Below, in pieces: positions 614-25,912 of a stretch of DNA of 64,000 nucleotides. The position numbers and the translations under genes were made by a program. A model generated the notes under the pieces. That model ran no database searches. It was not told where the DNA came from and saw nothing but the letters and a program-made list of their open reading frames with translations. How positions within the stretch are numbered: the first letter of the stretch is position 1; every line of letters begins with the position of its first letter. This DNA comes from a virus (taxonomy: Duplodnaviria; Heunggongvirae; Uroviricota; Caudoviricetes), in IMG/VR virus record IMGVR_UViG_3300017585_000052; one strand, 5' to 3'.

Positions 614-1651
614 ATGTTTTTTACATTGATAATCCCAGCTTATAATCCGGGACAGATTATCAAGCTGTTTAATTCAATTATAGCACAACATGAACCAGAT
701 TTGCTTGTTATTGTCTGCGATGATAGACCAGATGACGAGATAAAGGACGTCACGGAACTATATGATAGACTGCTCAATATTAAGTATTGTCATACGAAGG
801 ATAGGGAAATGCACAGTCCGGGTAATACAAGGCTTGATGCTCTGCAATATGTGCCAGATGATACAGTCTATTTATTATTTGCAGATGATGATGATTATTT
901 TAACCCAGATATGTTGCCTAAAATAAAAAACAAACTTATACAAGAGAAAATGCCACCGATGGTTTTTACTGATGTGTATGCAGTAACGCTAAGACATGGG
1001 GTACAAGATATATACAACTTGAATAACTACGAACGCAAATTGCTATTATCGAAGGGCGTATTTTTACATGGAGTTTTTTATAGATGGGATTTTATAAAAA
1101 GCAATGGATGTACCTTCAAAGAGAATATATCCTCCCATGAAGATGGATATTTTAATGCCATGTGTATTAGCTCGTTAATATGTAATAATATGTAGGCTAT
1201 TGTATTTGGCGGGGTTGAGTTTTATAACTGGTTTAGGCACCCGGGTTCAATAACAGATTCAACCAGATATATTGTTGGTATTGAATATATAGAGAATTAT
1301 TTTGAAGGTTTTTTAGAAAGTATTACTGAGCCAATGTGTGAAAAATATATAAATACACATTCACATAGGGAGCAACTATATGAGGTATGTGCCAAAAATA
1401 TGCTACTCGCTTATTTTTATGTACAATATTCCGAATATATTGGAAATAGAAAAATAGCCGACAAAAATAAAGGACTGTATAAAGTCTATCTTGATTACGT
1501 GAACCATTCATTTGGCTCGCAAGATTCAGCTCTTGTAGACTTTGCATATCAGAACCCAAGTTTATATGAGCAAGCTAAATAGACCGCAACTAATGCAGGG
1601 TTTATCTCTGTCGAAACATAGTCATTCAAAGACTTTATAGATTCTTTATAA
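614..1651 (+). CDS. family 2 glycosyltransferase (GT-A fold)
   Basis: N-terminus IIPAYN...VIVCDDRPDD matches the GT2 signature. Single frame with in-frame TAG at 1193, 1580 and 1619; true stop TAA at 1649. Confidence 0.6.
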
Positions 1652-1675
1652 TATTTTAGTTGAAGGAGGATTCTC

Positions 1676-2316
1676 ATGGACGCTCTTACTCTACGAATTA
1701 GAGGAAAATATGTTGTACCAGATGTTAAAGAAATCCTCATTAGTTCTGCTTCCGATGTAAGCAAACTTCCTACTTCTACAACCGCTGGCACATTTGATAA
1801 TGTTAATGCTAATTACCCTGTCGGTGTGGGTTCAATAGCTTATACCGCAGATATGTCAAGTGTATACCAGTTAAATTTAGAAGATGAATGGGTTGAAGTG
1901 GCTTCTTCTGGCGGCAGTGGTGGCGGTGGCGGCGGCGCGACAATCTCTGTAGATGCCACGCTAAACACTCAATCCGCAAATCCTATCGCTAATAGCGCAG
2001 TCGCCACTAAATTTAATGAAATAGAAGATGGAATTGATTAGGAAATAACTGCACGCGAGGAAGCTGACACTGCTGAGGCCACTGCTCGTGAAGAAGCAAT
2101 TACAGCAGAAGCTACCAATAGAGAAAAGGCTGATACTAACTTGGGAGACAGAATTGACATTCTGTCAGATACCGTTGAAACCGTTCAGGCTAAGTTAAAC
2201 GGTACCACCGTTTCTCTGCCAGAGGCAAGCATTTCTGATGTCGGCAAGGTGCTTCGTGTTGACGCTAATGGCTTCTGGGAGCTTGCTAAGTTAGAGACTA
2301 TTGGCGATATTACTTA
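1676..2316 (+). CDS. hypothetical structural (fibre-like) protein
   Basis: RBS AGGAGG. In-frame TAG at 2039, then the frame continues to TAA at 2314. Gly-rich linker SGGSGGGGGG. Confidence 0.45.
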
Positions 2317-2348
2317 ACTAATGAGATAAATAGCATCTAAGGGTAAAT

Positions 2349-2375
2349 GGCGATGTTTTTACATCGCCTTATATG
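2349..2375 (+). terminator. putative hairpin terminator
   Basis: Stem GGCGATGT/ACATCGCC followed by TTATAT. The U-tract is weak. Confidence 0.25.
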
Positions 2376-2448
2376 ACGGTATAAATGACGGTGTTATACC
2401 GTTCCTATTGGAACGTAATTTGTACCGCTATACAAGGTGATGAATATG

Positions 2449-2952
2449 AATCCCGGAAAACAATTTGAAAAGAATTTTGCCAATTCCGTACCGAAGGATG
2501 TTTACTTTATGCGGATTAAAGATTCAGCAAATAACTTTATGAGGACTTCTTCCTCCGCTTTTGCTACGAGCAACCCTTTTGACTGTTTTATGTTATATGA
2601 TGGAAACTTTATTCCAATAGAACTAAAAAGCACAAAAGGAACGAGTTTTAGTTTTTAGACAGAAGCGTGCGAAGATGGCAAAGATATTAAATATCACCAA
2701 ATTAAAAGTTTAGTTTAGGCTTAGACTTTTAAGAATGTTATTGCTGGATTTGTTTTTGATTTTCGTAATAGTGATACTTATTGGATGAGTATTACAGACT
2801 TTTATAAATTCTATTGCGAGACCTCTAAAAAAAGCATAAATGAGCAAGATATTATAAATAATAATGGAGTAGTAATTGACAAGAGACTTATGAAAGTCAA
2901 TTATAAATATGATATACAAGGGCTTTTAGATAATATAACGTCTAAAAGGTGA
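2449..2952 (+). CDS. putative PD-(D/E)XK family nuclease
   Basis: FDCFMLYDGNFIPIELK resembles a D..(E)xK nuclease core. Frame continues through TAG at 2656, 2719 and 2725 to TGA at 2950. Confidence 0.35.
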
Positions 2953-2983
2953 TGATATACTGTTACGTTAGGAGGTCTGATAA

Positions 2984-4060
2984 ATGGGACGAGGAACAGT
3001 ATACAATAATCTCTATACGCCTGAGATTTGGGCGAATGTTAATCCTGAAAACAAGGCTTTGTTAGATGACTTTGTTGCATACAAGAGAACGTCTGATAAA
3101 TCACCTCAGACGATAGAGCAATATTATCAAATGATACGCTTGTTCTTTTGTTGGAACTATACTTATAATAACAACAAATTCTTTGTAGATTTGAAAAAGA
3201 GAGATTTGGTTAGATTTTTCTCTTATGCAGTCGAAGTTATGGGTTGGTCATCTAATAGAACAGCAACAGTTAAATCTGCTTTAAGTTCGATGAGTAATTA
3301 TATTGAGAATATACTTGATGATGAGTACGAAGATTTCAGAAATATAGTTACTAAAATTGAGACAAGCGTTAAACAGCCAGTTAGAGAAAAGACTGTTCTC
3401 TCACAAGAGCAAGTAGACGATTGCCTAAATAAGTTGGTTCAAGCTGGAAAATATCAAATAGCTTGTTATATGGCTTTGGCTTGCGCTTGTGGAGCAAGAA
3501 AACAAGAGCTATTGAGATTCAAGGTCGATTATTTCAAGGACGAATATATTGAGTTTGGTTGCCTTTACAAAACTCCTGAAAAAATCAAAACTAAAGGTCG
3601 TTCATCTAAAGGGAAAATGATTTATAAGTATACATTTGTTAAAATGTTCAAACCGTATTTCGATTTATGGATGGATTACCGCAAAGAACATGGAATTGAA
3701 TCTGAATGGTTATTTGTTGTAAGGGATGGCGAAGGCGGTTATAGACAAGCCAGCGTTGCCTCGGCAAATAACTGGTGCGATGTAATTAGTGATATATTGG
3801 GAGAACCTTTTTATTCTCACGCCGCTCGTCATAGATTTGTTACTATGATGAAAGAAGCTAAACTTCCTGACGGAGTTATTGTCGCCATTATGGGTTGGGA
3901 AACAAGAAACGGTTCTGGTTTAAGCATGGTTGGAATTTATTCTGATTTAGATGAATCTGATATGCTTGCTGATTATTTTGATGAAGATGGAATTAAAAAG
4001 GATATTAAGGTTGGGACTATAACAGATATTGGTGGAACACAACCTAATTATAATAGGTAA
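2984..4060 (+). CDS. int: tyrosine recombinase / integrase
   Basis: Box I ACGARKQEL; box II HAARHRF; C-terminal GW..G.SMVGIYSDL with candidate catalytic Tyr. No internal TAG; strong RBS. Confidence 0.8.
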   Translation: MGRGTVYNNLYTPEIWANVNPENKALLDDFVAYKRTSDKSPQTIEQYYQMIRLFFCWNYTYNNNKFFVDLKKRDLVRFFSYAVEVMGWSSNRTATVKSALSSMSNYIENILDDEYEDFRNIVTKIETSVKQPVREKTVLSQEQVDDCLNKLVQAGKYQIACYMALACACGARKQELLRFKVDYFKDEYIEFGCLYKTPEKIKTKGRSSKGKMIYKYTFVKMFKPYFDLWMDYRKEHGIESEWLFVVRDGEGGYRQASVASANNWCDVISDILGEPFYSHAARHRFVTMMKEAKLPDGVIVAIMGWETRNGSGLSMVGIYSDLDESDMLADYFDEDGIKKDIKVGTITDIGGTQPNYNR

Positions 4061-4075
4061 CGAAAGGGGAAACTT

Positions 4076-4759
4076 ATGAAATTTAGTGAATTGCATGATA
4101 AACTTGCACAGCGCCAGTCTAATCTAATAACAGACCAAGACGTTATCAAGTGGTTATCCTCTAGTATAAAAATGAAGAAATATGTTCCCGTTATTCGCAA
4201 GTATGCAGTTATTGGTGTGATACAGAACACATATAAAACTCTTTTAGATGAAAATAACAAGGGAGACTTTGATATTGCATATCTAAATATGAGCTATGAT
4301 ATTGTTCGCACCATCAGGCTGCTACTTGAATATACGGATGTTGAATATTCTATGAGCGATATTACCATGAGTAATTATGATTTACTCTGCGGAACTAACT
4401 TCTACTCATACGTTATGCTTTATGCCAAAGAGGATTATGATAACTTTGTAGACAAATGCGACAGAGCTACAGGTATTCGTGATTTGCAGATTCTTCATGA
4501 AGTTGTTAATGAAATTGCAGACAAGTTTAATATTGATAACTTATCTAAAGTAAGAGAAGAAATTAACAAAATGGATATGCGTAAACTTGGACTATTGGAG
4601 TCTGTGGCTAAACTTAACGACCCAACTGTCGCTCAAATCGCTGACGTGATGAAAAAGCAAGCGGCAGTAGAGAGTATGAGTAAGGCACGGGATGAATCAT
4701 CGGATGAATCTAAAGAAGAAGTTGAGGGTGAATCCGATGAGCAGTTCAACGAAACTTAA
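4076..4759 (+). CDS. hypothetical protein with acidic C-terminus
   Basis: Intact ORF with RBS. Position upstream of the tape-measure gene suggests a chaperone or scaffold role, but no motif supports this. Confidence 0.45.
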   Translation: MKFSELHDKLAQRQSNLITDQDVIKWLSSSIKMKKYVPVIRKYAVIGVIQNTYKTLLDENNKGDFDIAYLNMSYDIVRTIRLLLEYTDVEYSMSDITMSNYDLLCGTNFYSYVMLYAKEDYDNFVDKCDRATGIRDLQILHEVVNEIADKFNIDNLSKVREEINKMDMRKLGLLESVAKLNDPTVAQIADVMKKQAAVESMSKARDESSDESKEEVEGESDEQFNET

Positions 4760-5312
4760 AAATACTTACGCAGCAAAACAGTTCATGAAAGCGTATAATC
4801 AACAGTTAGATAGTCTACAAAAAAGGTTGTCTAAATTGGTTGAGAAGATAGCTAAAGAAACTGTTTCTCGCGTTCAGGACTATATAAGAATAAATTACTA
4901 CGAAATGTACCCAGAAGGGGATAATTATGAGCGACTTGGTATGAATGGCGGTTTTATGGGAGCCATAACCTATGATTTTGACCCGTCAGGGCCAAGCGCT
5001 ACAATTTATTTTGATGCTTTCAAACTTGTATTTGGGCATAAAGGCAGCAAAGTTTTACCATCGCATATTGAGGCTGGACAACATTTCACGCAAGGATTAT
5101 ATGACTATATGATGCTCGGAGAATGGCCTTCGGGAAAACAATCAAACACGGTGGCCCCAAACTTTACTGGCCTTAATACGTATGGTGAAATGGATGACGC
5201 TATAACAGACTGGCTGAATGATTATATATCTGATAGGGTTTGGCAAGCTATGAGTGACTCTGGTTTATATATGTCTAAATCAAGCTTTGTACACGTTTGG
5301 AGTAATGGATAA
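4737..5312 (+). CDS. hypothetical protein
   Basis: Start taken at the internal ATG preceded by GAGGGTGAA. Overlaps the previous gene in another frame. Confidence 0.45.
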   Translation: MSSSTKLKNTYAAKQFMKAYNQQLDSLQKRLSKLVEKIAKETVSRVQDYIRINYYEMYPEGDNYERLGMNGGFMGAITYDFDPSGPSATIYFDAFKLVFGHKGSKVLPSHIEAGQHFTQGLYDYMMLGEWPSGKQSNTVAPNFTGLNTYGEMDDAITDWLNDYISDRVWQAMSDSGLYMSKSSFVHVWSNG

Positions 5313-5343
5313 GGAGGTGGAGTAATTGGCAGTAAATGACATT

Positions 5344-8300
5344 ATGTTTTAGATTGGCCTTGGTATCAATGGGCAGCAAGCCCAAGTTGACATGGAGGAC
5401 GTTATTGACAAACTTTGTAAAGCTGTCGAAAATGAAGGCATAACAGTTCCTGTTAATATAGATAAGACGGCAGACGATGCGCTAGAACAATTAAATAAGT
5501 TCCTGCAATCTATTGGTGCGCGTGTCAATGTTGTAAAAGACTCAACAACTGGCCTTATATCAGCTATCAACGTAGGAATACCAAAAGCCAATGGGCAATG
5601 GGCTAATCTTCACCAGACAATAGTAGACGTTGGGACTGCTATTAACGGTGTGACTAAACTTGAAAGCGGAGACATTTTTTCGGTTCTCAGTGGCTCTGAG
5701 CAGTCTGGGACAAGAGCGACTTCACTGATAAATGAAGTCGTAAGTCTAACACAGAAAAGAATAGACTTGCAAAAACAACTTGCGAACGAAATTGTTAATG
5801 GAGATTCAAAAGCTCAGACCAGTTTACAAAACCAAATCACAAAAGTACAACAAAAAATAGACTTAAAGACAGAAGAAATACAGCAATATCAACAAGAAGC
5901 TAATGCACTTGGAGCTACAACTGATTATATAGATAATCTTAACGCAAGAATATCTGAACTTCATCAATTAACTGGTCAAGAAAATTTTGTTTTAGGTAGT
6001 TCGACAGATTTATAGAATCTAAACACAAGAGTGAAAGATATTACTTCTACTCTGCAAGAATTTTCTGATATTGCTAAAAAGGCTCTAAATTCAAGTTCCA
6101 ATGATTCCACCTTTAAGTTTTATATAGGGCAGTTGCAAGCCTTGTCTCCTGAGATTGATTCAATTAAACAAGATATGGAGAATCTCGGAGTAACATTTGA
6201 CAAGCAAGGCGCACATTACACTGGAAATCAACAAGCCTTACAAAATCTAACAGAGGCTTATAATAAATATGCGGCAGCGGTAAATGAAGTTGGTACTAAG
6301 GTTTCAGAGAAAAATGCTATTGCCAATCAAAAGCAAGACATTCAAGAACTTAGCACAGCATTGACTGAATACTACAAACATAAAAAGTAGCTTGAAAATG
6401 CCGACACCAACGCAACTAAAACAGTTGAGCAAGCGGCATTACAACAACTTGAACAGAAATATGGAGATATATTAACTCGTGTTCAAGCGTATTCTAACGC
6501 TTTGTCTCAAACTGGACAAACTTCTACGCAAGTATATTCCCAAAATACGCAAGCCGCTGAGAAATTAGTCCAAAAACAGAAAGAGTTACAAAGTTCCCTT
6601 GAAAGAACACAAGCTATTAACAAGGACGCTGCTGACGATGCTGCCATAATTGAACAAACGGTTCAAGCGTATAAGGCGTATCGTGATTAGCTTGATAAGG
6701 TATACGCTCTAAAAAAAGAAAACGCCACAGGCGTTGATATTAAGTCAGAAACGACTCAATTAGAGCAATTAGAAAAACAGTATAAAAATTTAGAGCAAAC
6801 CGTACTGTCTAATGGAGAAGCTGTTAGATAGAATACGGAATATAATAGAGACAAAAACCAAGTGACGCGAGAGTCTATTCAAAATCAGAAAGCTCTCAAT
6901 GTTACAATGCAAAACCAGAGTTTGTCAGATTTGGTAGCTGAAACTATTGAGTACACCGTAAGTTTGTAGAGTTTACAGAAAGTCCTCGAAAGCGTAAAAG
7001 ATGAAGTATTTTCTCTAAATGAAGCAATGACTAATATCAGATTAGTTACTGGTGATACGGCAGAAAATACACGAGAACTAATGTCAACTTATTCTGACAT
7101 CGCAAAAGAGCTTGGTTCAACGACAACAGCAGTTGCCGAGTCCGCTGATAGCTGGTTGAGACAGGGCTATACGATAGAAGAAACCAATGAACTAATTGAA
7201 GCATCTTCAAGTCTTGCCACTATTGGCGCAATGTCAGCAGAAGATGCAAGCACGAGTCTAATTTCTGTTATGAATGGTTATAAAGTTTCGGCAGAAGATG
7301 CGATGAGTATTGTTGATAAATTGACAACGCTTGATATTAACCTTGCAAGTGGTTCGGATGATATTGCTATCGCAATGAGTAAGACTGCCGCTTCTGCCGC
7401 CGATGCTGGTGTTGAGTTAGATAAAATGCTTGCAATCCTTGGAGTCACTTAGGACAGGACTCAACAAGCTGCCGAAACTATTGGTAGAGCTTGGAACTCC
7501 ATCTTGCAACGAATGAACAAGATTAGCGCTGGCAAGGATGTCTCTGACACTGGCGCCTCCCTAAGAAAATTTGGGGCATTATAGAAATATAATGAAAATT
7601 CTCTCTAATGATTATCTTTATTAGATATGCTTGAAAACCCGATTGGACGGGCAACAGGGAGGAAGATTATGAAATCACCTTGAACGACTAAATGAGAGAA
7701 CCATATATAGATATATGGATGTGATAGTCTGAACACCGATATATTCCAATTATACAAGTCGGTGAGAGATGGTCGAGCGTAAAGACGCTCTTGGAAGTAC
7801 CATCTCCGCTTATCTTTTAGATAAGTTATAAAGTAACAGAATGAAATGATGTTGATAAGGTACTTTCTAAGGTCGGTATTAGCCTTCGTGATGAAAACGG
7901 TATTCTTCGTGAGAGCGGAGAGGTTTTGGACGAGATTGCTGCCAAATGGGAAACACTCGACAAGAATCAACAATCTCAGGTTGCAACGGCAGTTGCGGGT
8001 ACAAACCAAGCTAATATATTCAGAAGCACGATGGCGAATTACGATATGGTGTTAGAGCAGACCGTTGCTTCACAAGAAGCAAGCGGCTCCACTATGGAGC
8101 GTATGGCTGTCTACACTGAATCGCTCGAAGCTAAAGTAAATAGACTCAAAACCTCATGGACTGCCCTTGTTAATGATTTAGACTTACAGGGCATATTTAG
8201 TGAGGCCATTGATTTAGCGACAAGAGCTATTGAGGTACTCGATTATATATTAACAAAAATTCCCGGAGTGTCAGAATTAGTACAAACATTATTAAAACTC

Positions 8301-11300
8301 GAAGCCGTCAATGTTGTATTGGGCGGTATATCTAAAGCTGCCAACCATTTACTTGGAGCCGATGGTATTGGTGGATTATTCAGTGGATTTTTGGACTTCA
8401 AGGTCGTACTTGAAGGAATAAACAACGGCATGACTAAAACTGTTGTAGGTTTTACAAAAGGTGCAAGCGCGTCAACTATTCTCGGCAATACTATTGGAAC
8501 CATGGCAAAACAATTTACTGCTGCTGGTGGTGGAATTACTGGCATAGTTTCTGCAATAAGTTCTTTTGTCAGCTTGCATCCAGCAATAACTGCCGTTGCT
8601 GTCGCACTTGGAGCAGCATATGCAGCATACAAGATTTGGGATGCAAACTTTAATCCCGAAACAAAGATTGAAAATGCCAAAGAAGCGTACCAACAGTATG
8701 CTGACGAAATTACCGAAATCAACTCTTAGATTGCAGAGCTTGAAGATAAATCCGAGGCAATAACTTCGCAAGAAAACTTGACCTAGGCTCAAAAAGATTA
8801 TAATGTCGAGCTTGAAAAGACTATTGCCAATCTCAAAAATGAAAAAGCCGCCAAAGAAGAAATGCAACTCACTGAATTGCACAATTAGGCTTCGGCAGAG
8901 GGGGACGAGGCTCGTTCTACAAGTTTTTGGACTGGCAAATCAGAATACGATTCTACCCTTCAAGATATAAAGTACGCGCGTACAGATAAAGATAAATCTG
9001 AGGCAGAAGAAGAAGCCAATGATTTAATCGACACATACGAGAGCTACATAGATACTTTAGATGCTGTTGTCGAGGCTGGCGGGGAACTTACTGACGAGGA
9101 AAAAGAAAACCAAGAACTGTATGAAGAACGCATACAAACCCTGCTTATGCTCACTGACGAGACACAAGCATATGCAAGAGCAATAACCAATAATGATGAT
9201 ATTGCATCTAAATTGTCTGAGGTAAAGCAGAAAATAACAGACAATGCCACCGCTTACCAAAAGGCCCGCGAGGTAATTGAACAAGCCGTCACGGATGAAA
9301 TCAATGCTTCTGGTAAATAGTATACCGCGCAAGAGCGTGTTAATTTAATATACGAGGCTACCGAGCAGATTTTAAGCAACTACGGCTTTACACTCCAATC
9401 TGTCGCAGATAATAATGACACCGTTACAGACTCCTATTCTTCGCAAGCAGAGGCAATGGAGTCATATATAAGCACAATCAAAAGTCTTGAATCGAGCGAA
9501 GAAACGCTTTAGACTGCATTTAATGAAATGACTGAAAGCGGAGAAATTCAGGCAGATACAATGTCTGATTTGATTGCCGCTTATCCAGAACTTGCTAACT
9601 CCGTTGAAATCGTTGATGGAGCAATGCAGATTAACCTCCAAACTCTTAGCGACACAGCTTCTGCACAATACGAAACCGCAGCAGCAGCAGCAGAGGCGCA
9701 AGCCAATAATACTGAAGCGGTAATGAATCAAGTCTCTGCTCGACTGGAATTATATGGTATAGAGGCGCAAGCACTTTCGGCACTTGCTGGCGGTCAAATG
9801 ACTGCAAATCAAGCGGCGTTACAAGCGGCAGACTAGGCGGTAAAGACTGGACAAATCTCCGAAGATGAGTATGATATAATCTACAATGGAGCCGCTGCTG
9901 CCGCCGAACAATATGTTGGCCTTGCAGAAGGCATGGCGCAAGCTCAAAAGAATATCGAAGCTCTTAGAGCAAAAGCAAGCGGTGGGCTTTCTTATACTGG
10001 TTCTAAAAGTAAGTCATCTGGCAGTTCCTCTGGGAGCACGGCAAAAGACGAAGCCTCCGATGCTCGTAAAGAGGCGTATGACCTCGAAAAATCTCGTTAC
10101 GAGCAAACCCAGAACGAATTAGAACTTGAAAAATCTAAACTTGAAGCGCAACAAGATTAGATTGAGAATGAAAAGTCTGCGTTAGAAATAAAGAAGTCTG
10201 AATTAGAGTTACAAAAAGAACTCAAAGAGCAACAATTAGAAGTATTACAAGATGAAGAAGATTCTTTGGATAATATCTTGGATTTGATTAAAGAAATGAC
10301 AGACCAAGATTATGAGAACCTAAAGACTAATCTTGAAAACATATCTGACTATATTGACACATTCCGAGATGTTCTTTCTGACGTTAAAGACACCTACGAT
10401 GATATTGTAGATGACGCTAAAGAAAAATTAAAAGCAGAAAAAGAAGCCGCTGATAATCAAAAGAAGCTACAGGAGAAATCTCAAAAGGTTGCAGAAATTC
10501 AAGCTCAACTTGCAGAGATTCAATTCGATGATTCTTCTGATGCACAGAACAAGAGGGTAGAGTTGACTTCACAACTGAATGAAGCCATGCAAGACTTAAA
10601 TGACGAAGCGTCTGATTAGGCTTACGACACTGCTGTTGACGCCTTAGACAATACGGAAGATAAAGTCGATTAGGTTTTTGAAGCTATTGATACGATACTC
10701 GAATCTTCTCAGGGTGTAATAGAGGAATATGTCAATTATATTTCTGACGTATTACAATCTGACGGTAATTTGTACCAAGCTGCGTTGGCTCAATTTAGTG
10801 CTGCTGACGAACAATCTCGTCAAGAGCTATATAATAGACTACAAGAATATAATGCACAATATGGTGACGGTATCGAAGCTAATGTCACTAAGAAGTGGGA
10901 AGATGCTCTAACTGCATATAATAAGTACGCAGAAGCCACTGGTTCTACCGATACTGGTACTATACGTAATTATATGTAGACTCAGGATAATACTCTAACC
11001 GCAAGCATTAAAACTGATGAGCAAGCTATTAACACTTTAGATAACCAAATTAGCCAGCTTGAAATAGATATAAGCAAATTCGACCAGTCTATTTCTGATG
11101 TTGAGTCTCAAATCAATAATGTAAAATTGGCTTTAGACCAATTAGAGATAGATTATAACGGTCAGGAATTAACTATATCTGGTGTTACTGCTGCCACACA
11201 AGAAGAAATAAATGCAAAGGCTGGTGTAACTGCCGCTACTAATGATAATACAACCGCATTAAATGACAATACAGTTGCACAACAAGAAGAAGAACAAGTT

Positions 11301-16000: not shown

Positions 16001-17045
16001 ACGCATAGCTGATGCAACAAGTTCGATGAACAACTCTATGGCTGGTGGGCTGGGGCTGTATTGTACTCAAATCACGGAAAGTAATGGGTCTATTAAGTAT
16101 TGCTACCATGATGGCGCAACTATGGCAAGTAGTAAAACATATTATTACTATACATCTAGTGGGTATGCCTATGCAACTTACGAAACTCCCGGTATTATTA
16201 CAGAGTCTAACATTGAAAGTTGGACTGGTTGGCAATACGGGATGACATCTTCGGGCCTCATGATAATGAACGAGATATATGCCCATAAGATTACAGGTGA
16301 TTTAATAGAGGCCAACACTATAACCTCTATAAACTTAGGTGCGAGTTGTATAAATGCTTCTAATATTAACGGCAAGATTATAACCGGTGATTTGATAGAG
16401 GCTAATAGTATATACGCTGATAACTTATCTTATGATGCTGTGTTTAGAAAAATATGGTAGCAATCGCTTAGTTCAATGTCAGGTGGTTATACAATATCTA
16501 TGACTACTGACGCAGAGGGAAATTCCATCAGTGGTTTTTATGGAGCTATTGTATATACCGCTGGGAGTAAGGATTTTACGTCAGCAATTTGTACAGTCAA
16601 CAATATAACTTCACTAATTTCGCTAGTTTCTTCGGCTGCGATAGGCGGTACTTATGTTTATTCATCGCGATTCATTGGTGCTAACTCTGGTGAAGTCGCT
16701 TCAACTAATAGCGGCTCTTATGACACTGTTAGTTGTAGAAGCTTTAAGTATATTTATAGTTCTTCAACGAACCGCTATTTATATTTTTATGATAACTACA
16801 CACTTGCGTTTGGAACATTCAAGGTAGCTGGTAAGTCTTGGGGAATGACCGTTGGAATTTCCTTATGTACCTGTCTTTGTCCCAGTACAGGATGCGGTGC
16901 CACGTTCTGGAACGGTGGCGCTGGGCCAATTTGGGAAAGTTTCTGCGGGGTAACGAGTGGCTCTACTAACGTGTTGCCAAAACGTACCCGAAACAACTAT
17001 TACAATATTCCTTGGCGTGTATATGGATTTAAGATTGGATTGTAA
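13014..17045 (+). CDS. Tal-like tail-associated protein / receptor-binding giant protein
   Basis: GTG start. N-terminus RYRYPELILCNPNKSMLGYL..FDVYRTDG resembles the siphovirus Tal N-terminal domain. One frame from 13014 to TAA at 17043, interrupted only by about 9 in-frame TAG. C-terminus has ITGDLIEAN repeats and a Cys/Gly-rich tail. Confidence 0.45.
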
Positions 17046-17063: not shown

Positions 17064-18740
17064 ATGCCAGATTTAACTAATATTGCTATTGTTGCTGTAA
17101 TGGACAACTTAGGTAATATTCATAAAATAAACTACGAGACGCTGGAGAATTTGCCGGGAGCTATCAAAAACCCTTATTCCATTACAATATTTGGGTAGAC
17201 TTATGATGGCAGCAACAGCGTGACTATTGCCCCAACAGTTGCAAGCGCAACAGAACTTGGCTGCGTAAAGCCAGTAGCTAAAACTTCTGCAATGTTACAG
17301 GCCGTTGGTGTAGATTCCAACGGATTGCTATATACGCAAGGCGTAACGATAGATACAGTTGTTATGCGCAACAGCTCCTCTGCTGTTAGCGGTAACGCTG
17401 TTTACTCGTTTGTTGACACAAACCTTTCTGCTGTTTCTTCTTAGATGTCAGACTTAAAAGATGAAATTACAAGTGAGTATGAAACAGCAGACACTAAACT
17501 ACAAACGCAGATAACTTCAAACGATACAGATATTTCAACATTATAGGGGAATGTCACCACTATTAACACGTCTATTTCGGGCGTAAAAACCGACATGAGT
17601 TCGTTGGAAACAAAACTGCAAAAAGAAATAGATGCTAATACTACGTCAATCACAAATAATTACAATACGCTGACGGCAAAGAACACTTCACAAGATACCG
17701 CTATTTCTACTAACGCTTCAAATATTACAACTAATGCTACTGAAATATCTAACACAAAAGTTTCACTTAGCTCCGCTATCGAACGCATATCTGCTAATGA
17801 AACAGATATATCTAAATTACAATCTAAAGAAACGGGTAAATTTTTCAGCACAGAAACAGAACTTATAGATTACGCTGCTTCAACTGGCGCAAAAGATTTA
17901 GTTGTAGGCGAAGAAATGTATGTTACTGGATAGACCACATACTTCTATGTGTGGAATGGGACTTCTGCAATAAAGTATATTACTCTTGCTGGTGAAGATA
18001 ACTTTATGGCAAAAATAAACCCTGTCGGAACTGGATTCTTCAAGATGAATAGCGAATCTGGAAGTATTGGGTCAAACGGTGTTAGCCTTGGTGATAACAA
18101 TTCTTAGAACGGAACTTGTGGTTTCACTATTGGCTATGGACTAATAGAAAATATAGATTACGGTGGAGCTATCGGTAAATATAACGCTACTCCGTCCGAT
18201 GATGAATTATTTTCTGTCGGCTATGGCGATGATGACGATAATAGGAAAACTCTTGTAAGATTAACCACGGAAGGTACTCAAAAATATTACGGCGACATTG
18301 TGGCCTATTCTTCTGATATAAACTCAACTAAAGAATTTAACGAAGAATTATCTACTTACCACTATTCTCAAATTAAAGGTGAAATTATTAAAGTCTCCGT
18401 GGATTATGACACATTTATATCAAAAATCACTAAAAATGATTCTAATGCCTATACATTTGAATATATTTTAGACACGGACAACATAGGACATTGGCAATCC
18501 GATAGCTTTAACTTTAAGCCGGATATTCAATGGAGCGGTATAAACTATTATCCAATAAGTACGATAGGTATTTCTACAACTGATTCTGAGGGTAATGCCT
18601 ATTCCAGCTATGGAGTAGGAGACAAAATTACTATTAGATTAGTATATTCTTCTGAGATTAGTATGTATCAATTATACAGTGCTTTTACTAAACTTGGTCT
18701 GTATATAGATGAAGATGGCGATGTTTGCCAATATGATTAA
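17064..18740 (+). CDS. tail fibre protein
   Basis: Frame continuous through about 6 in-frame TAG. Fibre-like Ser/Thr/Asn repeats (ISTNASNITTNATEISNTK). Ends LYIDEDGDVCQYD with TAA. Confidence 0.6.
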
Positions 18741-18793: not shown

Positions 18794-19164
18794 ATGTATT
18801 GTGAATATGACAAATATCTTGTTCATTTGCATACAAGAGAGATAATCCAAGGAGACACTTGTGTATTTGCCTATCAATTTACAGATTAGGACGGCGGCGC
18901 AATAATTCCTACTGCCAGTCAGTTCTCATGGAAGTTATGTACTTATGATTACTATGATGAAGCTGTCATATCAATTCCAGCATCTTCTTCTTAGATTACG
19001 GTAGATTCCTCCACGGGAATTATTTATTTAACATTAACTGCTGCTAATACTTTAACATTGCAAAATGGCAAATACATACAGCAGCCAGTTCTTACATATG
19101 ATGGAACCCCATACATTAGGGCATGGGGAGAAATCATTGTTAGAAGAAAGGTAGGTGGAACGTA
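18794..19164 (+). CDS. hypothetical structural protein
   Basis: RBS AAGGAGGG. In-frame TAG at 18887 and 18992. Stop TAA overlaps the next ATG (TAATG). Confidence 0.45.
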
Positions 19165-19689
19165 ATGGTGAATAGAGCAATGGCTACACTTGTGAATCAA
19201 TTTATGTTTGGGCAACTTGGGATAGCTACCGCTCCTGACACATGGTATGTAGGAATATTAACTTTAAGTATTCCAACTACAAGTTTAGATGGCGATATTA
19301 GTGGAAAAGAGTTGGATTTAACAGGATACTCTCGTGTAGCTTTGGCAAATACATCAGATAATTTTACTGTGACAAGTTCTACCTCTATACTAAGTTATGT
19401 CGTTAATAAAAACGATATTATATTCCCCAAAATTGGTGGTAGCACTAATGGCACAGTCGCAGGATTTTTCCTGTCTGACACTGAAACTGGCAATGCTTAT
19501 ATCTGGGGGAATATGGCGACTACAAGAACAGTATATACTAATTCTGCTGTCGTTATTAAAGCTGGCGCTTTACAATTTGGATTAAGCAACGCTGGTTCTG
19601 GCGGCACTTCTGTCACTGGATTGTCCGTTGACGAAGATGGTATTCTGTCTGGTGTTTCTGCGGTATCTGCAACTGGCGTAATGTCGTGA
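19165..19689 (+). CDS. hypothetical structural protein
   Basis: Intact ORF; stop TGA. Confidence 0.5.
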   Translation: MVNRAMATLVNQFMFGQLGIATAPDTWYVGILTLSIPTTSLDGDISGKELDLTGYSRVALANTSDNFTVTSSTSILSYVVNKNDIIFPKIGGSTNGTVAGFFLSDTETGNAYIWGNMATTRTVYTNSAVVIKAGALQFGLSNAGSGGTSVTGLSVDEDGILSGVSAVSATGVMS

Positions 19690-20100: not shown

Positions 20101-21018
20101 ATGAAAACAGTGAAAGAACTAATAGATTACAGCCCACCAAGACGATTTTCTATGCAACAGTGTTTTGAAATCATAATCAGAGAACCGTCAACAAGACGCA
20201 CAATTTGTGTTTTAGATGATTGTAAAACTACTAACCTTGAAAACACAATAGAATTAGTCTATTAGATGGGCGGTGCTGGAAATGCTCTAATCGGTGGCGC
20301 GTGGGGACATAGTAAACGTGCCACATTAACGGTTGAGTCTGCCACATACAGCACTGATGTAATGGCGTTGCAGAACGGAACAAATGTAGAATATGGGTCT
20401 CAGACAATCACCGCATTTGATATTTTGGATATAGATTCAGATTTCAAAGACGGTGTAAAATTAAAACATACTCCTATTTCAACTGGTGGATATGATATTG
20501 GTTACGTCTATCTCTTAGGAGATGACGGGAGTATCGAAAATAAACTAATTCAGGGAGATGTAGCCATCTCAGGACAATTTATCTGTAATAATGATACTTT
20601 GTATTTTGCGGACGGCGATGTAGCAATCGGGGATAAAGTCTGTTGCTCATATTCGTATACTTCTTCTAATGATAGTACAAGAATCACCAATAAAGCAGGC
20701 TCTATGCCAAAAATGGCTCTGATTACTGCTATCGGTGTCGCAAAGGATATTTGCTCTGGTGATATGTGGCCTTGTCAATTAGAAGGACTTGTCCAGATTG
20801 GTGGAGCATCCAATCTTGATTTAAGTGCGGACGGAGATACGATTACACAATCAATCACTATGGAATTTGTCACAAGATGTAATTCCAGAAGTATGTATCA
20901 ATTTGTGGTTTATCCGCAAGATGAATACAGAGGTGCTTTGATTTACGATATAGCTCCGCTGACAATAGGTTTTATTGCACCTATGACAATAGAAGAAATT
21001 ACCAAATGGCCTATCTGA
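20101..21018 (+). CDS. hypothetical structural protein
   Basis: ATG 15 nt after a G10 tract. In-frame TAG at 20263 joins it to ORF 20266..21018. Stop TGA. Confidence 0.45.
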
Positions 21019-21133
21019 CCATTGTTACAAACGAAGCCTTCTTTAGATTACTTGACAATATTGTTTAATCCCCAACATATTATTTTAGTAGTCTAAAGTA
21101 TAAATAATTATTTATTTTACGGAGGTAAAATAT

Positions 21134-22339
21134 ATGGGAAAACTTTTGAGAGATGAAACTTATATCGAGCAGATGAACAAACAGAACGCGCTTCTGGAAG
21201 TTCTTGTTGCCGATAAGCTGGCGAGTGCTTCCGCTAATTGGGCAGAAATCGCCAAGATTATTAAGGGCGGTTATGGCTCTTATGTCTACTATCCCGGCGA
21301 CCAGTTCAGCGACACTTGGGCTGACGCTTATGCTACTGGCGGTTCAAAGGAGTACACTTATCCTTGGCACGTTGCATCCCATCGCACTGTTACCCTGAGT
21401 GATGGTGAGACTAAGAGCGGTATGATTATTCAGGCTCACTACGCTCATCCTTTTGGCGTTCAGTTTAGCCATCAGCGTGCTTTCCTTGCTTGCCCCTCTG
21501 GACTTGTTGCTGGCACGTATTATTTCACCATTGAATCTGCTTGGGGTACTAATGTTGCCGCAAACGATGTTGTTTGCTTCACTACTACTCAGTCCGTTCC
21601 GCAGGGCGGTTGTATCGCTGGTTGCTACGGCGCACCCGACCAAGCGAAATCTAATTGGCGTATTTATCTGTATGCCGCTGACCGCACTACGATTCTTGAG
21701 ACTATTGTTCCTACCTTTACCACTCCTGACAGCGGCACAAATCTCGGCACTCAGCATCTGAATAAGCGTGATGGGAACCTGAACTCCACTCAGGAGATGG
21801 CTTACGGTTGGAACCGTTGGTCTACCTCTGCGCTGCGTCAGTACCTCAATAGTTCTGCTGATAAAGGCGCGTGGTGGACTGCACAGGACGAGTGGGATAT
21901 TGCGCCTAACGAGCTTGCATCAAAGGCTGGTTTTATGGCTGGTCTGCCAGAGGAACTCGTGAACGCAATTAAGCCTGTTCAGGTCACTACTTACACCAAT
22001 ACCGTTCAGGATGGCGGCACTGCGGACATTACCTATGATAAGTTCTTCCTCCCTGCATTGCAGGAAATCCATGTTAATCCGCAGATTCAGGGCGAAGGCG
22101 AGGCATGGGAGTATTGGACTCAGGTTTCTGGTTCTGTTACTCCGCTGGCACAATACGGTACTTATTCTCAGATGATTACTTATGCAGTTGAGAATCATGT
22201 TAGTCCGCAGTATGTTCGTTTGCGTTCGGCGAACCGTGGCGGCGCGAATAATACGTGGATTGTCTACTCGTCTGGCTATGTCAACGTCAGCGGCGCTAGC
22301 GTCTCGAATAGGTTTTCGCCGGCCTGCGTCATCTGCTAA
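21134..22339 (+). CDS. retroelement target protein (variable C-terminal domain, probable receptor-binding protein)
   Basis: The C-terminal ~40 codons coincide with the variable repeat. Gene is GC-richer than its flanks. RBS GGAGG; stop TAA. Confidence 0.7.
   Translation: MGKLLRDETYIEQMNKQNALLEVLVADKLASASANWAEIAKIIKGGYGSYVYYPGDQFSDTWADAYATGGSKEYTYPWHVASHRTVTLSDGETKSGMIIQAHYAHPFGVQFSHQRAFLACPSGLVAGTYYFTIESAWGTNVAANDVVCFTTTQSVPQGGCIAGCYGAPDQAKSNWRIYLYAADRTTILETIVPTFTTPDSGTNLGTQHLNKRDGNLNSTQEMAYGWNRWSTSALRQYLNSSADKGAWWTAQDEWDIAPNELASKAGFMAGLPEELVNAIKPVQVTTYTNTVQDGGTADITYDKFFLPALQEIHVNPQIQGEGEAWEYWTQVSGSVTPLAQYGTYSQMITYAVENHVSPQYVRLRSANRGGANNTWIVYSSGYVNVSGASVSNRFSPACVIC
22207..22327 (+). repeat. 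variable repeat (VR) of the diversity-generating retroelement
   Basis: 121-nt match to 23155-23275. All ~15 differences fall at adenines of the template copy (AAC to GTC, AGC or GGC). Confidence 0.8.
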
Positions 22340-22479
22340 TCCCTACCCTAAAAGTGTGATGTTTAATTACACTTTTAGGGAATCCAGCCATGCGAACGCA
22401 TGGCGTATACAGAGTGACGTAAACGGTTAAAATAACCTTAAAAGGTCAATTAAATATTACTAAAACAAACTTGCCATAA

Positions 22480-22526
22480 CTTCTCTTTAGATGTACAAAG
22501 ATACGTCCGCGTTATCTAAAGAGAAG
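22480..22526 (+). promoter_or_regulatory. 13-bp perfect inverted repeat downstream of the target gene
   Basis: CTTCTCTTTAGAT..21 nt..ATCTAAAGAGAAG. A second small hairpin ACACGC/GCGTGT lies at 22554-22570. Could be a terminator or a retrohoming-enhancing structure. Confidence 0.45.
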
Positions 22527-22603
22527 TCTATATATAATTTTCTTTTAGATGTTACACGCAATGCGCGTGTTAAATTTCTATAAATAGATATTTACAAAGG
22601 AGT

Positions 22604-23113
22604 ATGATTATTATGTCAGTACCAGCGCATAGACGTGCGCCGAACAAGCTCACTGCTTTGGTTAAAGCTAGAGAACTTGCTTCTTATACATTAAAAATAA
22701 CTCAAAATCAAAACACGTTCCAGCCTAAAAACGGGACGGTTGTAAGAGATAAAGTGCAGTCATGCGCGGCTGACATATTTTTGCTTGCAAGTGATGCTAA
22801 TGATATTAACGTAAGTAAGAATCCTGATTTGCTTGAAAAGCGTCAGGAATTGCAAAAAGAAGCATTATATAAATGTAAGGCGTTAAAGAATCTCATTAGT
22901 TTAGCTGGTATAACATATCATTTGCGTGATAGACGGATTGCCTATTGGACGAGCTTAGTGGAAGAAACGTATGCGTTGCTAAGAAAGTGGTATTTAGCCG
23001 ATTGTAATAGATACGGCGCACCACTTACGCAAGAAAATGTTGTTGGCGTTTCAAAGAAATCTAATGCAAATGATATAAGAGCAAGCTCTTATGAAGATAA
23101 TTCTCCCTTTTGA
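22604..23113 (+). CDS. putative accessory variability determinant (Avd)-like protein
   Basis: Basic, helical ORF between the variable and template repeats. This position is typical for Avd. Confidence 0.4.
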   Translation: MIIMSVPAHRRAPNKLTALVKARELASYTLKITQNQNTFQPKNGTVVRDKVQSCAADIFLLASDANDINVSKNPDLLEKRQELQKEALYKCKALKNLISLAGITYHLRDRRIAYWTSLVEETYALLRKWYLADCNRYGAPLTQENVVGVSKKSNANDIRASSYEDNSPF

Positions 23114-23154
23114 AAGGATTGATTATATGATTAAGGAATGGAGTGAGGCTATGT

Positions 23155-23275
23155 GCAGAATGTTCGTTTGCGTTCGGCGAACCGTGGCAACGCGAATAAT
23201 ACGTGGAATGTCAACTCGTCTGGCAATGTCAACAACAACAACGCTAGCAACTCGAATAGGTTTTCGCCGGACTGT
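23155..23275 (+). repeat. template repeat (TR) of the diversity-generating retroelement
   Basis: Adenine-rich (AAC runs) counterpart of the variable repeat, immediately upstream of the reverse transcriptase. Confidence 0.8.
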
Positions 23276-23467
23276 ATTTTCAAAAATGGCCTATCGACAA
23301 GCATCTAATGATTGTACGGCGTGTGGGAAAACGCAGGGAGTCTCGCTACCATGTTATATCTGAAATTAAAATCTACGGATTAAACAGATAATAGATATAA
23401 CGAAACAATCATGGGGTGATGTCGTTGACTTGCGAGTTAGTACGGCTATACACATCCCATCAATTAT

Positions 23468-24571
23468 TTGTTTTTTCTAAATTCGAGGTGTTTACTCATC
23501 GAAAAGTTAGAACTAATTAGGAAGTATGGAGAAATAGATGTTTGTGATTTTGAGCATCTAATGGAATCAGAACACAAATGCGTAAAAGGTGTATTATGGA
23601 AAGGCTCTGTCGCGGCTTTTGATTTGAACAAAATTGCTTTGCTCAAAAAGTTGTCAGATGAATTACATAATGACACTTATCGCCCACTTCCTCCAAGAAC
23701 TGTTTTAATCACCTACCCTAAACGCAGAGTTGCTGTCAGCATAGCATTTCGTGACAGAATCTACCAAAGAAGTCTAAACGACAATATTGTCTATCCTCTT
23801 ATGACAAGAAGTTTCATTTATGATAACTGTGCTTGCCAAAAAGGAAAGGGTTCAGACTTCGCAAGGGGTAGATTAAAATGTCATATTCAGAAATGCTTTC
23901 GTAAAAATGGCATGGACTTCTGGGTATTGCAATGTGATATAAAACACTATTATGATAACATGAGACATGACACGACAGAAGCATTATTCCGTGAGCATTT
24001 ACCACCACGTTACGGGAATATGGTCGCTAAAGTTCTTAATGAACAGTATCAAGGTGATGTTGGGTTTAATCCCGGTAGTCAAATGATACAAATAGCGGGT
24101 ATCTCTGTTTTGGACAAGTTAGACCATAAGATTAAAGAGCGGATGCACATTAAACATTATTTGAGATATATGGATGACTTTATTTTGATGCACCCTGATA
24201 AAGAATACCTGTTACAATGTAAAAAGTGGATTAACGAGGAATTGTCCAAGATAGGTCTGTCTCTACATGAAAAGAAAACAAAACTGTATCATATCTCAAA
24301 AGGAGTTGACCTTTTGGGATTCCATTATAAACTTTTCAACACTGGAAAAGTAACAATGTCCGTACTTGGACAAAATGTAAAACATGAACGCCGCAAACTT
24401 CGCAAAATGGTTAAACTTGTTAAAACTGGTAGAATACCAAAAAGTAGACAACCATTAACCAAACAAAGGTTAGATATGTGCTATCAATCATGGAAAGCAC
24501 ATATAGCTCATGGAAATTCTCATAAGTTACAAGTACGAATGGATAAATTCTACAAAGATTTATGGAGGTAG
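23468..24571 (+). CDS. diversity-generating-retroelement reverse transcriptase
   Basis: Motif C YLRYMDDFIL (YxDD). GSQ variant of the GxxxSP motif, typical of retroelement reverse transcriptases. GVDLLGFHY. Annotated stop is TAG. Confidence 0.85.
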   Translation: MFFLNSRCLLIEKLELIRKYGEIDVCDFEHLMESEHKCVKGVLWKGSVAAFDLNKIALLKKLSDELHNDTYRPLPPRTVLITYPKRRVAVSIAFRDRIYQRSLNDNIVYPLMTRSFIYDNCACQKGKGSDFARGRLKCHIQKCFRKNGMDFWVLQCDIKHYYDNMRHDTTEALFREHLPPRYGNMVAKVLNEQYQGDVGFNPGSQMIQIAGISVLDKLDHKIKERMHIKHYLRYMDDFILMHPDKEYLLQCKKWINEELSKIGLSLHEKKTKLYHISKGVDLLGFHYKLFNTGKVTMSVLGQNVKHERRKLRKMVKLVKTGRIPKSRQPLTKQRLDMCYQSWKAHIAHGNSHKLQVRMDKFYKDLWR

Positions 24572-24575
24572 GATT

Positions 24576-24749
24576 ATGATTTTCACAAAAGCGAAAATGA
24601 CTCCTTACGAGGAAAAGATGGCTGAGTATCGCAATTCTCAAATCGAGGAACAAGGTTCTCAGATTGAGTATCTTGCTATTATGACCGATGTTGAGTTCCC
24701 TTCTGAGGAAACTACGACTTCTGGCAATGTGGATGAGGTGACTGAATAA
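24576..24749 (+). CDS. hypothetical small protein
   Basis: RBS GGAGGTAGG. TAA stop overlaps the next ATG. Confidence 0.4.
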   Translation: MIFTKAKMTPYEEKMAEYRNSQIEEQGSQIEYLAIMTDVEFPSEETTTSGNVDEVTE

Positions 24750-24904
24750 TGACTGAACTTAGCGCACATGGTATCAAGGTTAAGAAGTATTATGAGGCTG
24801 GCTACTGGAATAAACAGATGGTTTATAATGTAACTACTAAGGGTTACATTACCCCAGAAGAATATGAAATTATCATCGGGGAGCCTTACGCTGCCGCCAA
24901 CTAA
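24749..24904 (+). CDS. XkdX-like small phage protein
   Basis: Sequence ..YYEAGYWNKQMV..KGYITPEEYEIIIGE resembles the PBSX XkdX family. Confidence 0.45.
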   Translation: MTELSAHGIKVKKYYEAGYWNKQMVYNVTTKGYITPEEYEIIIGEPYAAAN

Positions 24905-24924
24905 TCTAAAGATGAATAAAGAAG

Positions 24925-25563
24925 ATGGCTCCAATGTCCGTAATTAAATATAGCGTATCAAAAGACGGCAGCACTGCTCTTTCTGCGAATTTCAAAGTTA
25001 GAGAATTTGCTTGCAATGATGGTTCCGATGAAGTTCTAATTGATTCTGACTTGGTTATCGTCTTGCAAAAAATTCGTGACCACTTCGGAAAGCCGCTAAT
25101 CATAAATTCAGCATACAGAACCTCTGCCTATAATAAAAAAATAGGTGGTTCTTCAAGTTCATACCATGTAAAAGGTATGGCAGCGGACATAAAGATTAGC
25201 GGTGTTTCCGCTGTTGAGTTGGGGCTTTATGCTCAAACTATAACGAATGGTGTAGGTGTGTATTATTATGGCAACACTGAATTTGTTCATGTAGATACAC
25301 GGTCGAGCACTGTGTATTGGTTATGCGCAAAAGCTGGCAAATACGAATATTATCACTCTGCACTAATGCCTACAATTAAACGTGGCGGTAATGTCGGTAA
25401 AACTTCTGCTGTTAAATTTCTCCAAAAGAAACTCGGTATATATGCTGATGGCTCATTTGGGAAATCAACAGAATCTAAAGTAAAAGAATTTCAGAAAGCT
25501 AATGGACTTACTGCTGACGGTATTGTCGGTAAAAATACATGGAACAAATTGTTCTGTGTTTAA
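24925..25563 (+). CDS. endolysin: peptidase M15 domain plus C-terminal peptidoglycan-binding domain
   Basis: M15 motifs FKVREFACNDG..SAYRT..N...GG...SYHVKGMAADI. C-terminus LGIYADGSFG...GLTADGIVG is a PG_binding_1-like repeat. Confidence 0.8.
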   Translation: MAPMSVIKYSVSKDGSTALSANFKVREFACNDGSDEVLIDSDLVIVLQKIRDHFGKPLIINSAYRTSAYNKKIGGSSSSYHVKGMAADIKISGVSAVELGLYAQTITNGVGVYYYGNTEFVHVDTRSSTVYWLCAKAGKYEYYHSALMPTIKRGGNVGKTSAVKFLQKKLGIYADGSFGKSTESKVKEFQKANGLTADGIVGKNTWNKLFCV

Positions 25564-25597
25564 CATTTAGATGTAACGATATAAGAGGTGAACCTAA

Positions 25598-25912
25598 ATG
25601 ACTATTGAAATGTTTTGCACTTTGCTTCTCGGTCTTGGTACTGGTACTACTCTTGTTATTGAGTTCATCAAGAGTTTCCTCGAAAAGACTGGCAAAACTG
25701 TCTCCGCGAGTTCGCTCTCGCTTGTTACTGGCGCTATTGTTGGCGCTGGCGGTATGGTGCTGTATTTCATTATGGCTAATATTGCTTTTACCCCTGCAAA
25801 TCTTATTTGGATTGTCGGCATGGCTATTGCTAATATAATGGGTAGCCAGCTTGGATATGATAAGATTGTCGCAGTAGTCAAACAAATGAGTTCCAAGAAA
25901 GAAGAAGCATAA
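25598..25912 (+). CDS. holin-like membrane protein
   Basis: 104 aa, 2-3 transmembrane helices and a charged C-terminus, immediately after the endolysin. Confidence 0.55.
   Translation: MTIEMFCTLLLGLGTGTTLVIEFIKSFLEKTGKTVSASSLSLVTGAIVGAGGMVLYFIMANIAFTPANLIWIVGMAIANIMGSQLGYDKIVAVVKQMSSKKEEA

Follow-up and report, generated by a model that had tools for sequence, protein, structure and literature searches.

The 64,000-nucleotide (nt) stretch of DNA analysed here, referred to as the window, is IMG/VR virus record IMGVR_UViG_3300017585_000052. Its source is a gut-type tailed phage, a siphovirus of ~98 kb with an SPbeta-like structural module. In the plus-strand late module of this phage, TAG codons lie in frame inside conserved genes that are under purifying selection, and these codons correspond to glutamine; we hold the reading of TAG as Gln in the module with high confidence. 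It is very probable that the phage uses two codes, with early genes in the standard code, and with TAG standing for Gln in the virion genes, a GT2 glycosyltransferase, a reverse transcriptase (RT), the lysin and a few nuclease genes. We regard the phage as a further member of the known class of code-15 (TAG to Gln) phages, one in which no amber-reading tRNA was found.

TAG codons inside the late genes

Reading frames were listed as open reading frames (ORFs) bounded by TAA or TGA alone. On the plus strand between 602 and 24625 these frames contain 46–47 in-frame TAG codons, and in the same listing the genes of the module contain no in-frame TAA or TGA. Same-strand coverage by ORFs of at least 100 amino acids (aa) between 600 and 25600 was 0.62 under code 11; it rose to 0.91 when TAG was taken as sense, and was only 0.65 when TGA was taken as sense instead. 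The corresponding values for the minus-strand early region were 0.81, 0.85 and 0.86. The original prediction, that the ORFs of the plus-strand module are fragmented by TAG and that a comparison of translation tables would reveal this, is thereby borne out. Density of in-frame TAG differed sharply between late genes (47 in 6003 codons) and early genes (about 4 in ~11,900), with an odds ratio of 23 (Fisher p = 2e-18). G+C content of the window is 38%.

All plus-strand genes terminate at TAA or TGA, which is partly true by construction. For the RT, however, the alignment to relatives runs on beyond the near-terminal TAG. Five stops had been quoted as confident gene ends (12030 TAA, 17043 TAA, 18738 TAA, 21016 TGA and 22337 TAA), and all five are correct. 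The generalization that every gene ends in TAA or TGA holds for the plus-strand module and fails on the minus strand, where four genes end in TAG.

Homologs indicate that the fragments between TAG codons are parts of single proteins. The Tal-like tail protein (13095–17045, plus strand; 1316 aa) has nine TAG codons; when it was translated with X at each of them and used as query, we found 32 full-length homologs of 1250–1390 aa at 43–56% identity, many covering the whole query (45–55% identity at 100% coverage). Three homolog-bearing contigs were compared with the window: L008 (112 kb), L010 (79 kb) and L011 (96 kb). L008 and L010 are syntenic, through genes for tape measure, distal tail protein Dit, Tal, fibre, two small proteins, the target of a diversity-generating retroelement (DGR), Avd and RT. 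Neither in-frame TAG nor TAG stops were found in the module of L008 and L010, and their tape measure, Dit, Tal, fibre and RT genes are each a single ORF. With uninterrupted homologs covering all the Tal pieces, the pieces are not independent proteins that end at TAG. L011 has 49 in-frame TAG codons and represents a second relative that was recoded independently.

Strain-level comparison points the same way. Contigs L006 and L007, from other Joint Genome Institute (JGI) samples, are 98–99% identical to the window. Codon differences within the TAG-containing frames were predominantly synonymous, at 213 synonymous vs 29 non-synonymous for L006 and 123 vs 18 for L007. This excess is evidence of purifying selection across the TAG codons, and coding potential does continue through them, as the original prediction held. 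Assemblies made independently from six or more samples have the same TAG codons.

The affected genes begin with the GT2 glycosyltransferase (614–1651, plus strand, as are all genes in this paragraph; 345 aa), which has three TAG codons (1193, 1580, 1619) and a Pfam PF00535 match (E = 5.7e-13); standard-code callers terminate it at 1195, leaving 193 aa. A 213-aa protein with no function assigned (1676–2317) has one TAG (2039). It is followed by a RecU-like nuclease (2440–2952; 170 aa) with three (2656, 2716, 2722), all covered by a Pfam RecU match at residues 18–155 that scores 24.2 bits, slightly below the cut-off of 25. Beyond the tape measure gene lie Dit (DUF6558; 12131–13027; 298 aa; three TAG codons), whose Pfam PF20195 match at residues 5–133 covers two of the TAG positions, then the Tal-like gene, the tail fibre (17064–18740; 558 aa; five TAG codons) and a 123-aa tail-module protein (18794–19165; two TAG codons). 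The TAG at 19141 is probably upstream of the true start (19162) of a Gp80-like gene. A 305-aa protein with no function assigned (20101–21018) has one TAG (20263). The DGR RT (23561–24625; 354 aa; Pfam RVT_1) also has one (24569), at which standard-code callers end it, leaving 336 aa. Reading TAG as sense had been predicted to rebuild the Tal-like protein, the fibre, the GT2 enzyme and a tape measure protein of ~2200 aa. The first three are indeed rebuilt in this way; the tape measure is not rebuilt by TAG alone.

The tape measure gene consists of two ORFs in different frames, 5344–7608 and 7845–12032, with TAA between them. A 281-nt, ORF-less, group I-like intron (7563–7843, plus strand) separates exon 1 (5344–7562, plus strand; seven TAG codons) from exon 2 (7844–12032, plus strand; 11 TAG codons). 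Splicing after U 7562 and after G 7843 keeps the frame and yields a 2135-aa protein with 18 TAG codons; the 5′ splice site is preceded by U and the 3′ splice site by G. In a search of 600 nt, the Rfam Intron_gpI model (RF00028) gave this interval 21.8 bits (E = 0.0027), short of its gathering score of 50; the conserved elements GACUAAA and AUAGUCU are present. One Pfam PhageMin_Tail match (E = 1e-29) runs across the splice junction, and the spliced junction peptide aligns in one piece with the uninterrupted tape measure genes of 121 phage records. Restoring the tape measure takes removal of the intron as well as the predicted readthrough. At the same insertion site L008 and L010 have a 380-aa DUF7487 ORF (266–380 aa across L008, L010 and L011), which is probably a homing endonuclease.

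Group I introns are numerous in this genome. Four more were found upstream of the window, in the structural and left-hand region (L035 12189–12492, 15729–16072 and 16134–16464; L037 2540–2811), scoring 52–77 bits, above the Rfam threshold.

Some genes of the module have no TAG. The tyrosine integrase (2984–4060, plus strand; Pfam PF00589 and PF13495) is flanked by the RecU-like gene and putative tail chaperones and forms a standard-code island amid the recoded tail module. The two TAG-free ORFs that follow it, 4076–4759 and 4692–5312, share a 68-nt overlap and may encode tail assembly chaperones that a programmed frameshift joins. A complete DGR spans 21134–24625 (plus strand). It comprises the target, a DUF6273 protein (21134–22339, plus strand; no TAG) with its variable repeat at 22207–22326, an Avd-like ORF (22604–23113, plus strand; no TAG), the template repeat (23155–23274, plus strand) and the RT. 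All mismatches between the repeats are template A to variable N.

The residue at TAG

At residues 59 and 540 of the Tal-like protein, Q was found in 27/36 and 30/36 homologs, compared to a background Q frequency of 3.8%. Some database homologs had themselves been called with TAG as Q, so the test was repeated on standard-code relatives alone. Reliably aligned TAG sites were Q in 9 of 23 cases in L008 and 9 of 21 in L010. For L008 this is 39% of TAG sites, vs 53% for genuine Gln codons. When BLOSUM62 scores were summed over sites, Q ranked first in all six settings, 10–30 units above E, K and N. A control for this measure, covering all 20 amino acids, recovered the true residue in 96–100% of samplings. 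The recoded relative L011 gave a similar picture, with its own TAG sites aligned to Q in 16/23 cases against L008 and 14/21 against L010.

Individual sites follow the same pattern. The three TAG sites of Dit align to Q, N and Q in both L008 and L010, and at site 18992, in the 123-aa tail-module protein, L008 and L010 have Q where L011 has TAG. All three TAG replacements among strain variants are CAG, at 8784, 12473 and 14010, the second of these being a Dit site that is CAG in L006. Gln, the residue that the original prediction had favoured from precedent, thus scores highest in every setting and is the residue exchanged with TAG between strains. Gln codon usage in the late genes is 209 CAA, 57 CAG and 47 TAG. 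A purine follows TAG in 83% of cases, with no significant difference from Gln codons (p = 0.06).

Early genes and the search for a decoder

The 68 called minus-strand genes are nearly free of in-frame TAG; their stops are TAA (36), TGA (28) and TAG (4). The TAG-terminated genes are a 594-aa gene at 29356–31140 (minus strand), with a TGA two codons after its stop, and three others at 34139–34537, 37694–38146 and 41259–41498 (all minus strand). As these four show, TAG still terminates translation in the genes that are expressed first. Each of the four is backed up by an in-frame TAA or TGA, which is 0, 1, 6 or 24 codons downstream, and after a code switch their products would gain only a slight extension.

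A few minus-strand genes do have TAG in frame. The GH25 lysin (59835–60569, minus strand; 244 aa) has one, at 60477, and only when it is read through is the Pfam PF01183 profile covered from 1 to 180 of 180, which confirms the predicted restoration of its N-terminus. The PD-(D/E)XK nuclease (53834–54613, minus strand; 259 aa) has one at 54560, crossed by a Pfam PF12705 (PDDEXK_1) match that covers profile positions 2–247 of 247. The PIN-PhoH gene (62844–64000, minus strand; 400 aa) starts 46 nt outside the window. With its N-terminus (MVFYDTNALL...) taken from contig L001, its TAG (63990) is codon 19, and there is no ATG, GTG or TTG among the 133 codons after that TAG, so this gene needs readthrough because it lacks an alternative start. 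Here the prediction succeeded on readthrough and on the PhoH domain, which was confirmed by Pfam; the PIN domain had no significant Pfam match. Uracil-DNA glycosylase (UDG; 45290–45940, minus strand; start codon uncertain) probably needs readthrough as well, judging from UDG-like N-terminal sequence that extends upstream of a probable TAG at 45908; the Pfam UDG match itself spans residues 47–206 only. A small GIY-YIG protein had also been proposed, at 31430, and was not upheld: it matched no Pfam family. Three strain variants keep these minus-strand in-frame TAG codons, that of the PD-(D/E)XK nuclease being conserved in L002–L004.

A two-code phage of this kind would work as follows. The minus-strand replication and early genes, being in the standard code, could be translated by the host ribosome on arrival. 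In the virion, tail-fibre, GT2, DGR RT, GH25 lysin and few nuclease genes, TAG would be decoded as Gln. Full-length tail proteins, including the tape measure with its 18 TAG codons, would be made only once efficient amber decoding was active in the cell. In that case TAG may serve as a timing lock that holds back late functions and lysis.

We looked for the decoder in the window and beyond it. Near-identical contigs were joined via exact-protein look-ups into a 98,080-nt composite, in which the window begins at 26,032. The sole tRNA in the window is tRNA-Arg(UCU) (58244–58317, minus strand), which is not a suppressor, in agreement with the original observation that the window shows no tRNA(CUA). 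About 18 kb to the left of the window is a tRNA array, and the phage has in total about 10 tRNA or tRNA-like genes. The order of the array is Met, Gln(UUG), Asp, Trp, Pro(UGG), Tyr, Asn, a drum RNA, Ser(UGA) and two odd tRNA-like genes. On contig L037, tRNA-Gln(UUG), tRNA-Pro(UGG), the drum RNA and a 58-nt tRNA-like element occupy 6419–6490, 7132–7200, 7636–7746 and 8642–8699. ARAGORN missed both tRNA-Gln(UUG), which scores 43.6 bits in Rfam and has a non-canonical GGCGGTA T-loop, and tRNA-Pro(UGG), which scores 34.9 bits. The drum RNA scores 65.9 bits, above its gathering score. A further tRNA-like gene (L037 8893–8974, ~17 kb left of the window) combines good acceptor, D and T arms with an anticodon loop of 8 nt, CGACCATT; its sequence is 100% identical across five strain contigs.

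Wider relatives were found through a marker, a 107-aa protein encoded beside the tRNA array, which led to 38 more distant IMG/VR loci. About 24 of the 38 are TAG-recoded, and 15 of these have a canonical tRNA(CUA) with anticodon loop CTCTAAA; none of 13 non-recoded loci has a tRNA(CUA). The tRNA(CUA) is usually immediately downstream of the conserved marker gene. Many of these suppressor tRNAs are 85–93 nt long with a long variable arm (L046, L050, L053, L054, L059, L071, L072, L074). In L062 and L078 the slot otherwise held by tRNA(CUA) is held by tRNA-Ser(UGA). The array of L042, a recoded relative (78% identity), is without tRNA(CUA) and has tRNA-Gln(UUG) and a CUG-anticodon tRNA of 98 nt whose variable arm is long (L042 5242–5339). 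This last is the positional counterpart of the gene with the 8-nt loop, and both adjoin the marker gene, where the distant relatives hold tRNA(CUA).

The custom cloverleaf scan used on the composite recovers the known tRNAs; for CUA and UUA anticodons it returned noise-level matches inside ORFs only. Relaxed ARAGORN settings called ‘tRNA-Pyl(cta)’ at 45572–45778 and 23309–24082, with mismatched stems and introns of 112–683 nt, inside coding sequence, and a ‘tRNA-Gln(ctg)’ just left of the window was rejected on the same grounds of mismatched stems, long introns and coding-sequence location.

The composite is not closed. At least five independent contigs break at the same two positions, and the ends of the composite do not overlap. 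At the right end, 8 kb to the right of the window, the break removes roughly the first 30 residues of an RNA ligase, whose PF21189 match starts only at position 32 of the 92 in the profile. Searching from the left end with an exact pattern gave nothing that would close the genome; IMG/VR held only contigs stopping at the same end, and a first scan of IMG/VR proteins found nothing. A gap, probably a small one, is thus left in the assembly, and it could hide a tRNA gene. The left contig end (L037 1–200) is AT-rich with a repeated motif of ~28 nt, AGTAAGTTATCCTATATAGGTTAGTTAT, exactly where all assemblies break. It may serve in packaging or as an origin of replication, or it may be a repeat on which assembly fails.

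Several findings weigh against the two-code interpretation as set out above. No tRNA(CUA) was found in the 98,080-nt composite, itself not closed, by ARAGORN, by permissive Rfam searches or by the custom cloverleaf scan. No release-factor (RF-1/PCRF) or aminoacyl-tRNA synthetase Pfam domain was found in the precomputed annotations of the called genes. Where relatives have their tRNA(CUA), the window phage and L042 have a terminator hairpin. Recoding is not strictly late, in that three or four minus-strand genes need readthrough. Most likely the decoder is either a tRNA(CUA) that falls in the gap of the assembly or a tRNA so non-canonical that it escapes detection.

The alternative that survives best, while still unlikely, is that TAG was reassigned without tRNA(CUA). 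The phage would neutralise release factor 1 (RF1) of the host or boost near-cognate decoding, with a tRNA-Gln reading UAG by G36–U first-position wobble. Either tRNA-Gln(CUG/UUG) of the host or the non-canonical tRNA-Gln(UUG) that the phage itself encodes is a candidate for such near-cognate decoding, and further candidate amber readers are the tRNA-like gene with the 8-nt loop and, in L042, the long-arm CUG tRNA. In favour of such a scheme are the failure of three methods to find tRNA(CUA) in 98 kb, the unusual T-loop of the phage tRNA-Gln(UUG), and the array of L042, which is recoded, likewise lacks tRNA(CUA) and has both tRNA-Gln(UUG) and the 98-nt CUG tRNA. In E. coli deficient in RF1, moreover, mainly Gln, Tyr and Lys are inserted at UAG. 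However, a tRNA gene of 75–90 nt could sit in the gap of the unclosed genome, and 18 TAG codons in one gene demand very efficient decoding, rarely given by near-cognate reading. With a UUG anticodon, termination at TAA, the stop codon used most, would be at risk as well, and relatives use ordinary tRNA(CUA). That the window lineage and L042 decode TAG as Gln without any CUA-anticodon tRNA is accordingly a tentative idea with the odds well against it; if true, it would be of high interest, since phages would then have a second way of reassigning a stop codon, one that does not depend on tRNA(CUA).

It is much less probable still that TAG stands for an amino acid other than Gln, such as pyrrolysine, tyrosine, lysine or glutamate. 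Relatives do have K, E, N, T or H where a TAG site is poorly conserved, and the long variable arm of some relatives' tRNA(CUA) is typical of Ser, Leu and Tyr tRNAs. Against this stand the lead of Q over E, K and N in every setting and the CAG found at all three strain-level replacements. In the relatives with long-arm tRNA(CUA), TAG sites still align best to Q (15/50 sites; score 57 vs 10 for the next residue), which favours Gln over the Ser, Leu or Tyr that the long arm might suggest. Pyrrolysine decoding was rejected on the lack of a credible tRNA(CUA), the absence of pyl genes from the Pfam annotations, and aligned residues that point to Q rather than K.

Practically no weight is left for the TAG codons as nonsense mutations of an element that is decaying or defective, or as assembly errors: standard-code gene callers do fragment the module, but only one of the three stop codons is found in frame, at identical positions in the independent assemblies, across frames under purifying selection (213 synonymous vs 29 non-synonymous), in genes that all end cleanly at TAA or TGA.

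The tRNA-Arg(UCU) of the window adjoins a sub-threshold match (31.5 bits) to a YrlA-like Y RNA, and the region forms a possible RNA-repair and Ro/Y-RNA module (window 58111–58317, 58427–59245 and 60614–62155, all minus strand; L001 2–2131 and 7017–7949). Its members are a DUF2828/DUF7788 protein, a Thg1-like protein, a KTI12/AAA_33 kinase, RlaP and a DRB0094-type RNA ligase; the first of these, we presume, may be TROVE/Ro60-like. The RNA ligase is 709 aa in L001 and 333 aa in the strain variant L043. From sequence motifs, the L001 copy appears to carry an intein that is absent in L043.

Relation to known recoded phages

In a survey of recoded phages, Borges et al. found recoding concentrated in structural/late and lysis genes, with early genes and integrase in the standard code (bioRxiv 10.1101/2021.08.26.457843). 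A suppressor tRNA was found in 40% of TAG-recoded genomes, undetected non-canonical tRNAs being suspected, and about 60% of TAG-recoded genomes were without recognisable tRNA(CUA), release factor 2 (RF2) or glutaminyl-tRNA synthetase (GlnRS) (bioRxiv 10.1101/2021.08.26.457843). For crAss-like phages, code 15 has been demonstrated at the level of peptides (PMC9523058).

The window phage resembles the code-15 gut phages (crAss-like, Lak and Firmicutes-infecting clades) in having TAG in structural and lysis genes, with early genes and integrase compatible with the standard code. It is also like them in its low G+C content, in the deduction of Gln as the residue, and in having standard-code relatives that seldom or never end genes with TAG. 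Unlike those described, it belongs to a different lineage, with an SPbeta-like module and a genome of ~98 kb, and no tRNA(CUA), RF2 or GlnRS was found for it; RF2 and GlnRS are uncommon and dispensable accessories in code-15 phages.

Phage phAss-1, of the proposed Phassvirus, is an unrelated 136-kb gut phage with TAG in 41 ORFs, three tRNA-Sup(CUA) genes and 36 tRNAs (PMC10607447). It shares with the window phage a large, siphovirus-type gut genome, the lack of a dedicated aminoacyl-tRNA synthetase and an assignment of Gln from alignments. Its terminase, tape measure and fibre genes are broken by TAG, so that TAG-interrupted late genes are a common trait of the two. They differ in tRNA content; the window phage has about 10 tRNA or tRNA-like genes, and a CUA anticodon occurs in none of them. 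The tblastn matches of its capsid protein did not include phAss-1.

By major capsid protein the closest cultured relatives are phages of Enterocloster bolteae, at 36–37% identity over 96% of the protein. These phages, PMBT24 and CB457P1–CB473P3, are siphoviruses of 97–107 kb (PMC11035940), similar in genome size to the window phage. PMBT24 differs in having no tRNAs, and its paper is silent on recoding, amber and stop codons (PMC11035940). At the nucleotide level, a blastn search of the tail module against the phage collection found nothing, and the polymerase region gave weak matches to Clostridioides phages only. A capsid-protein profile scan found no prophage copies in GTDB species genomes.

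Standard-code callers break the tail module into about 40 fragments and truncate the lysin, PIN-PhoH, nuclease and RT, so that a database entry for this phage will be wrong whenever it was made with table 11. For the phages that read TAG as Gln, the window adds a Lachnospiraceae-type, SPbeta-like lineage. Because recoded members (the window lineage and L011) and standard-code members (L008 and L010) occur in one syntenic family, that family is a good system for studying how recoding originates. As a nearly complete genome without a detectable amber suppressor, this phage bears on how the ~60% of recoded phages that are in the same position change their code.

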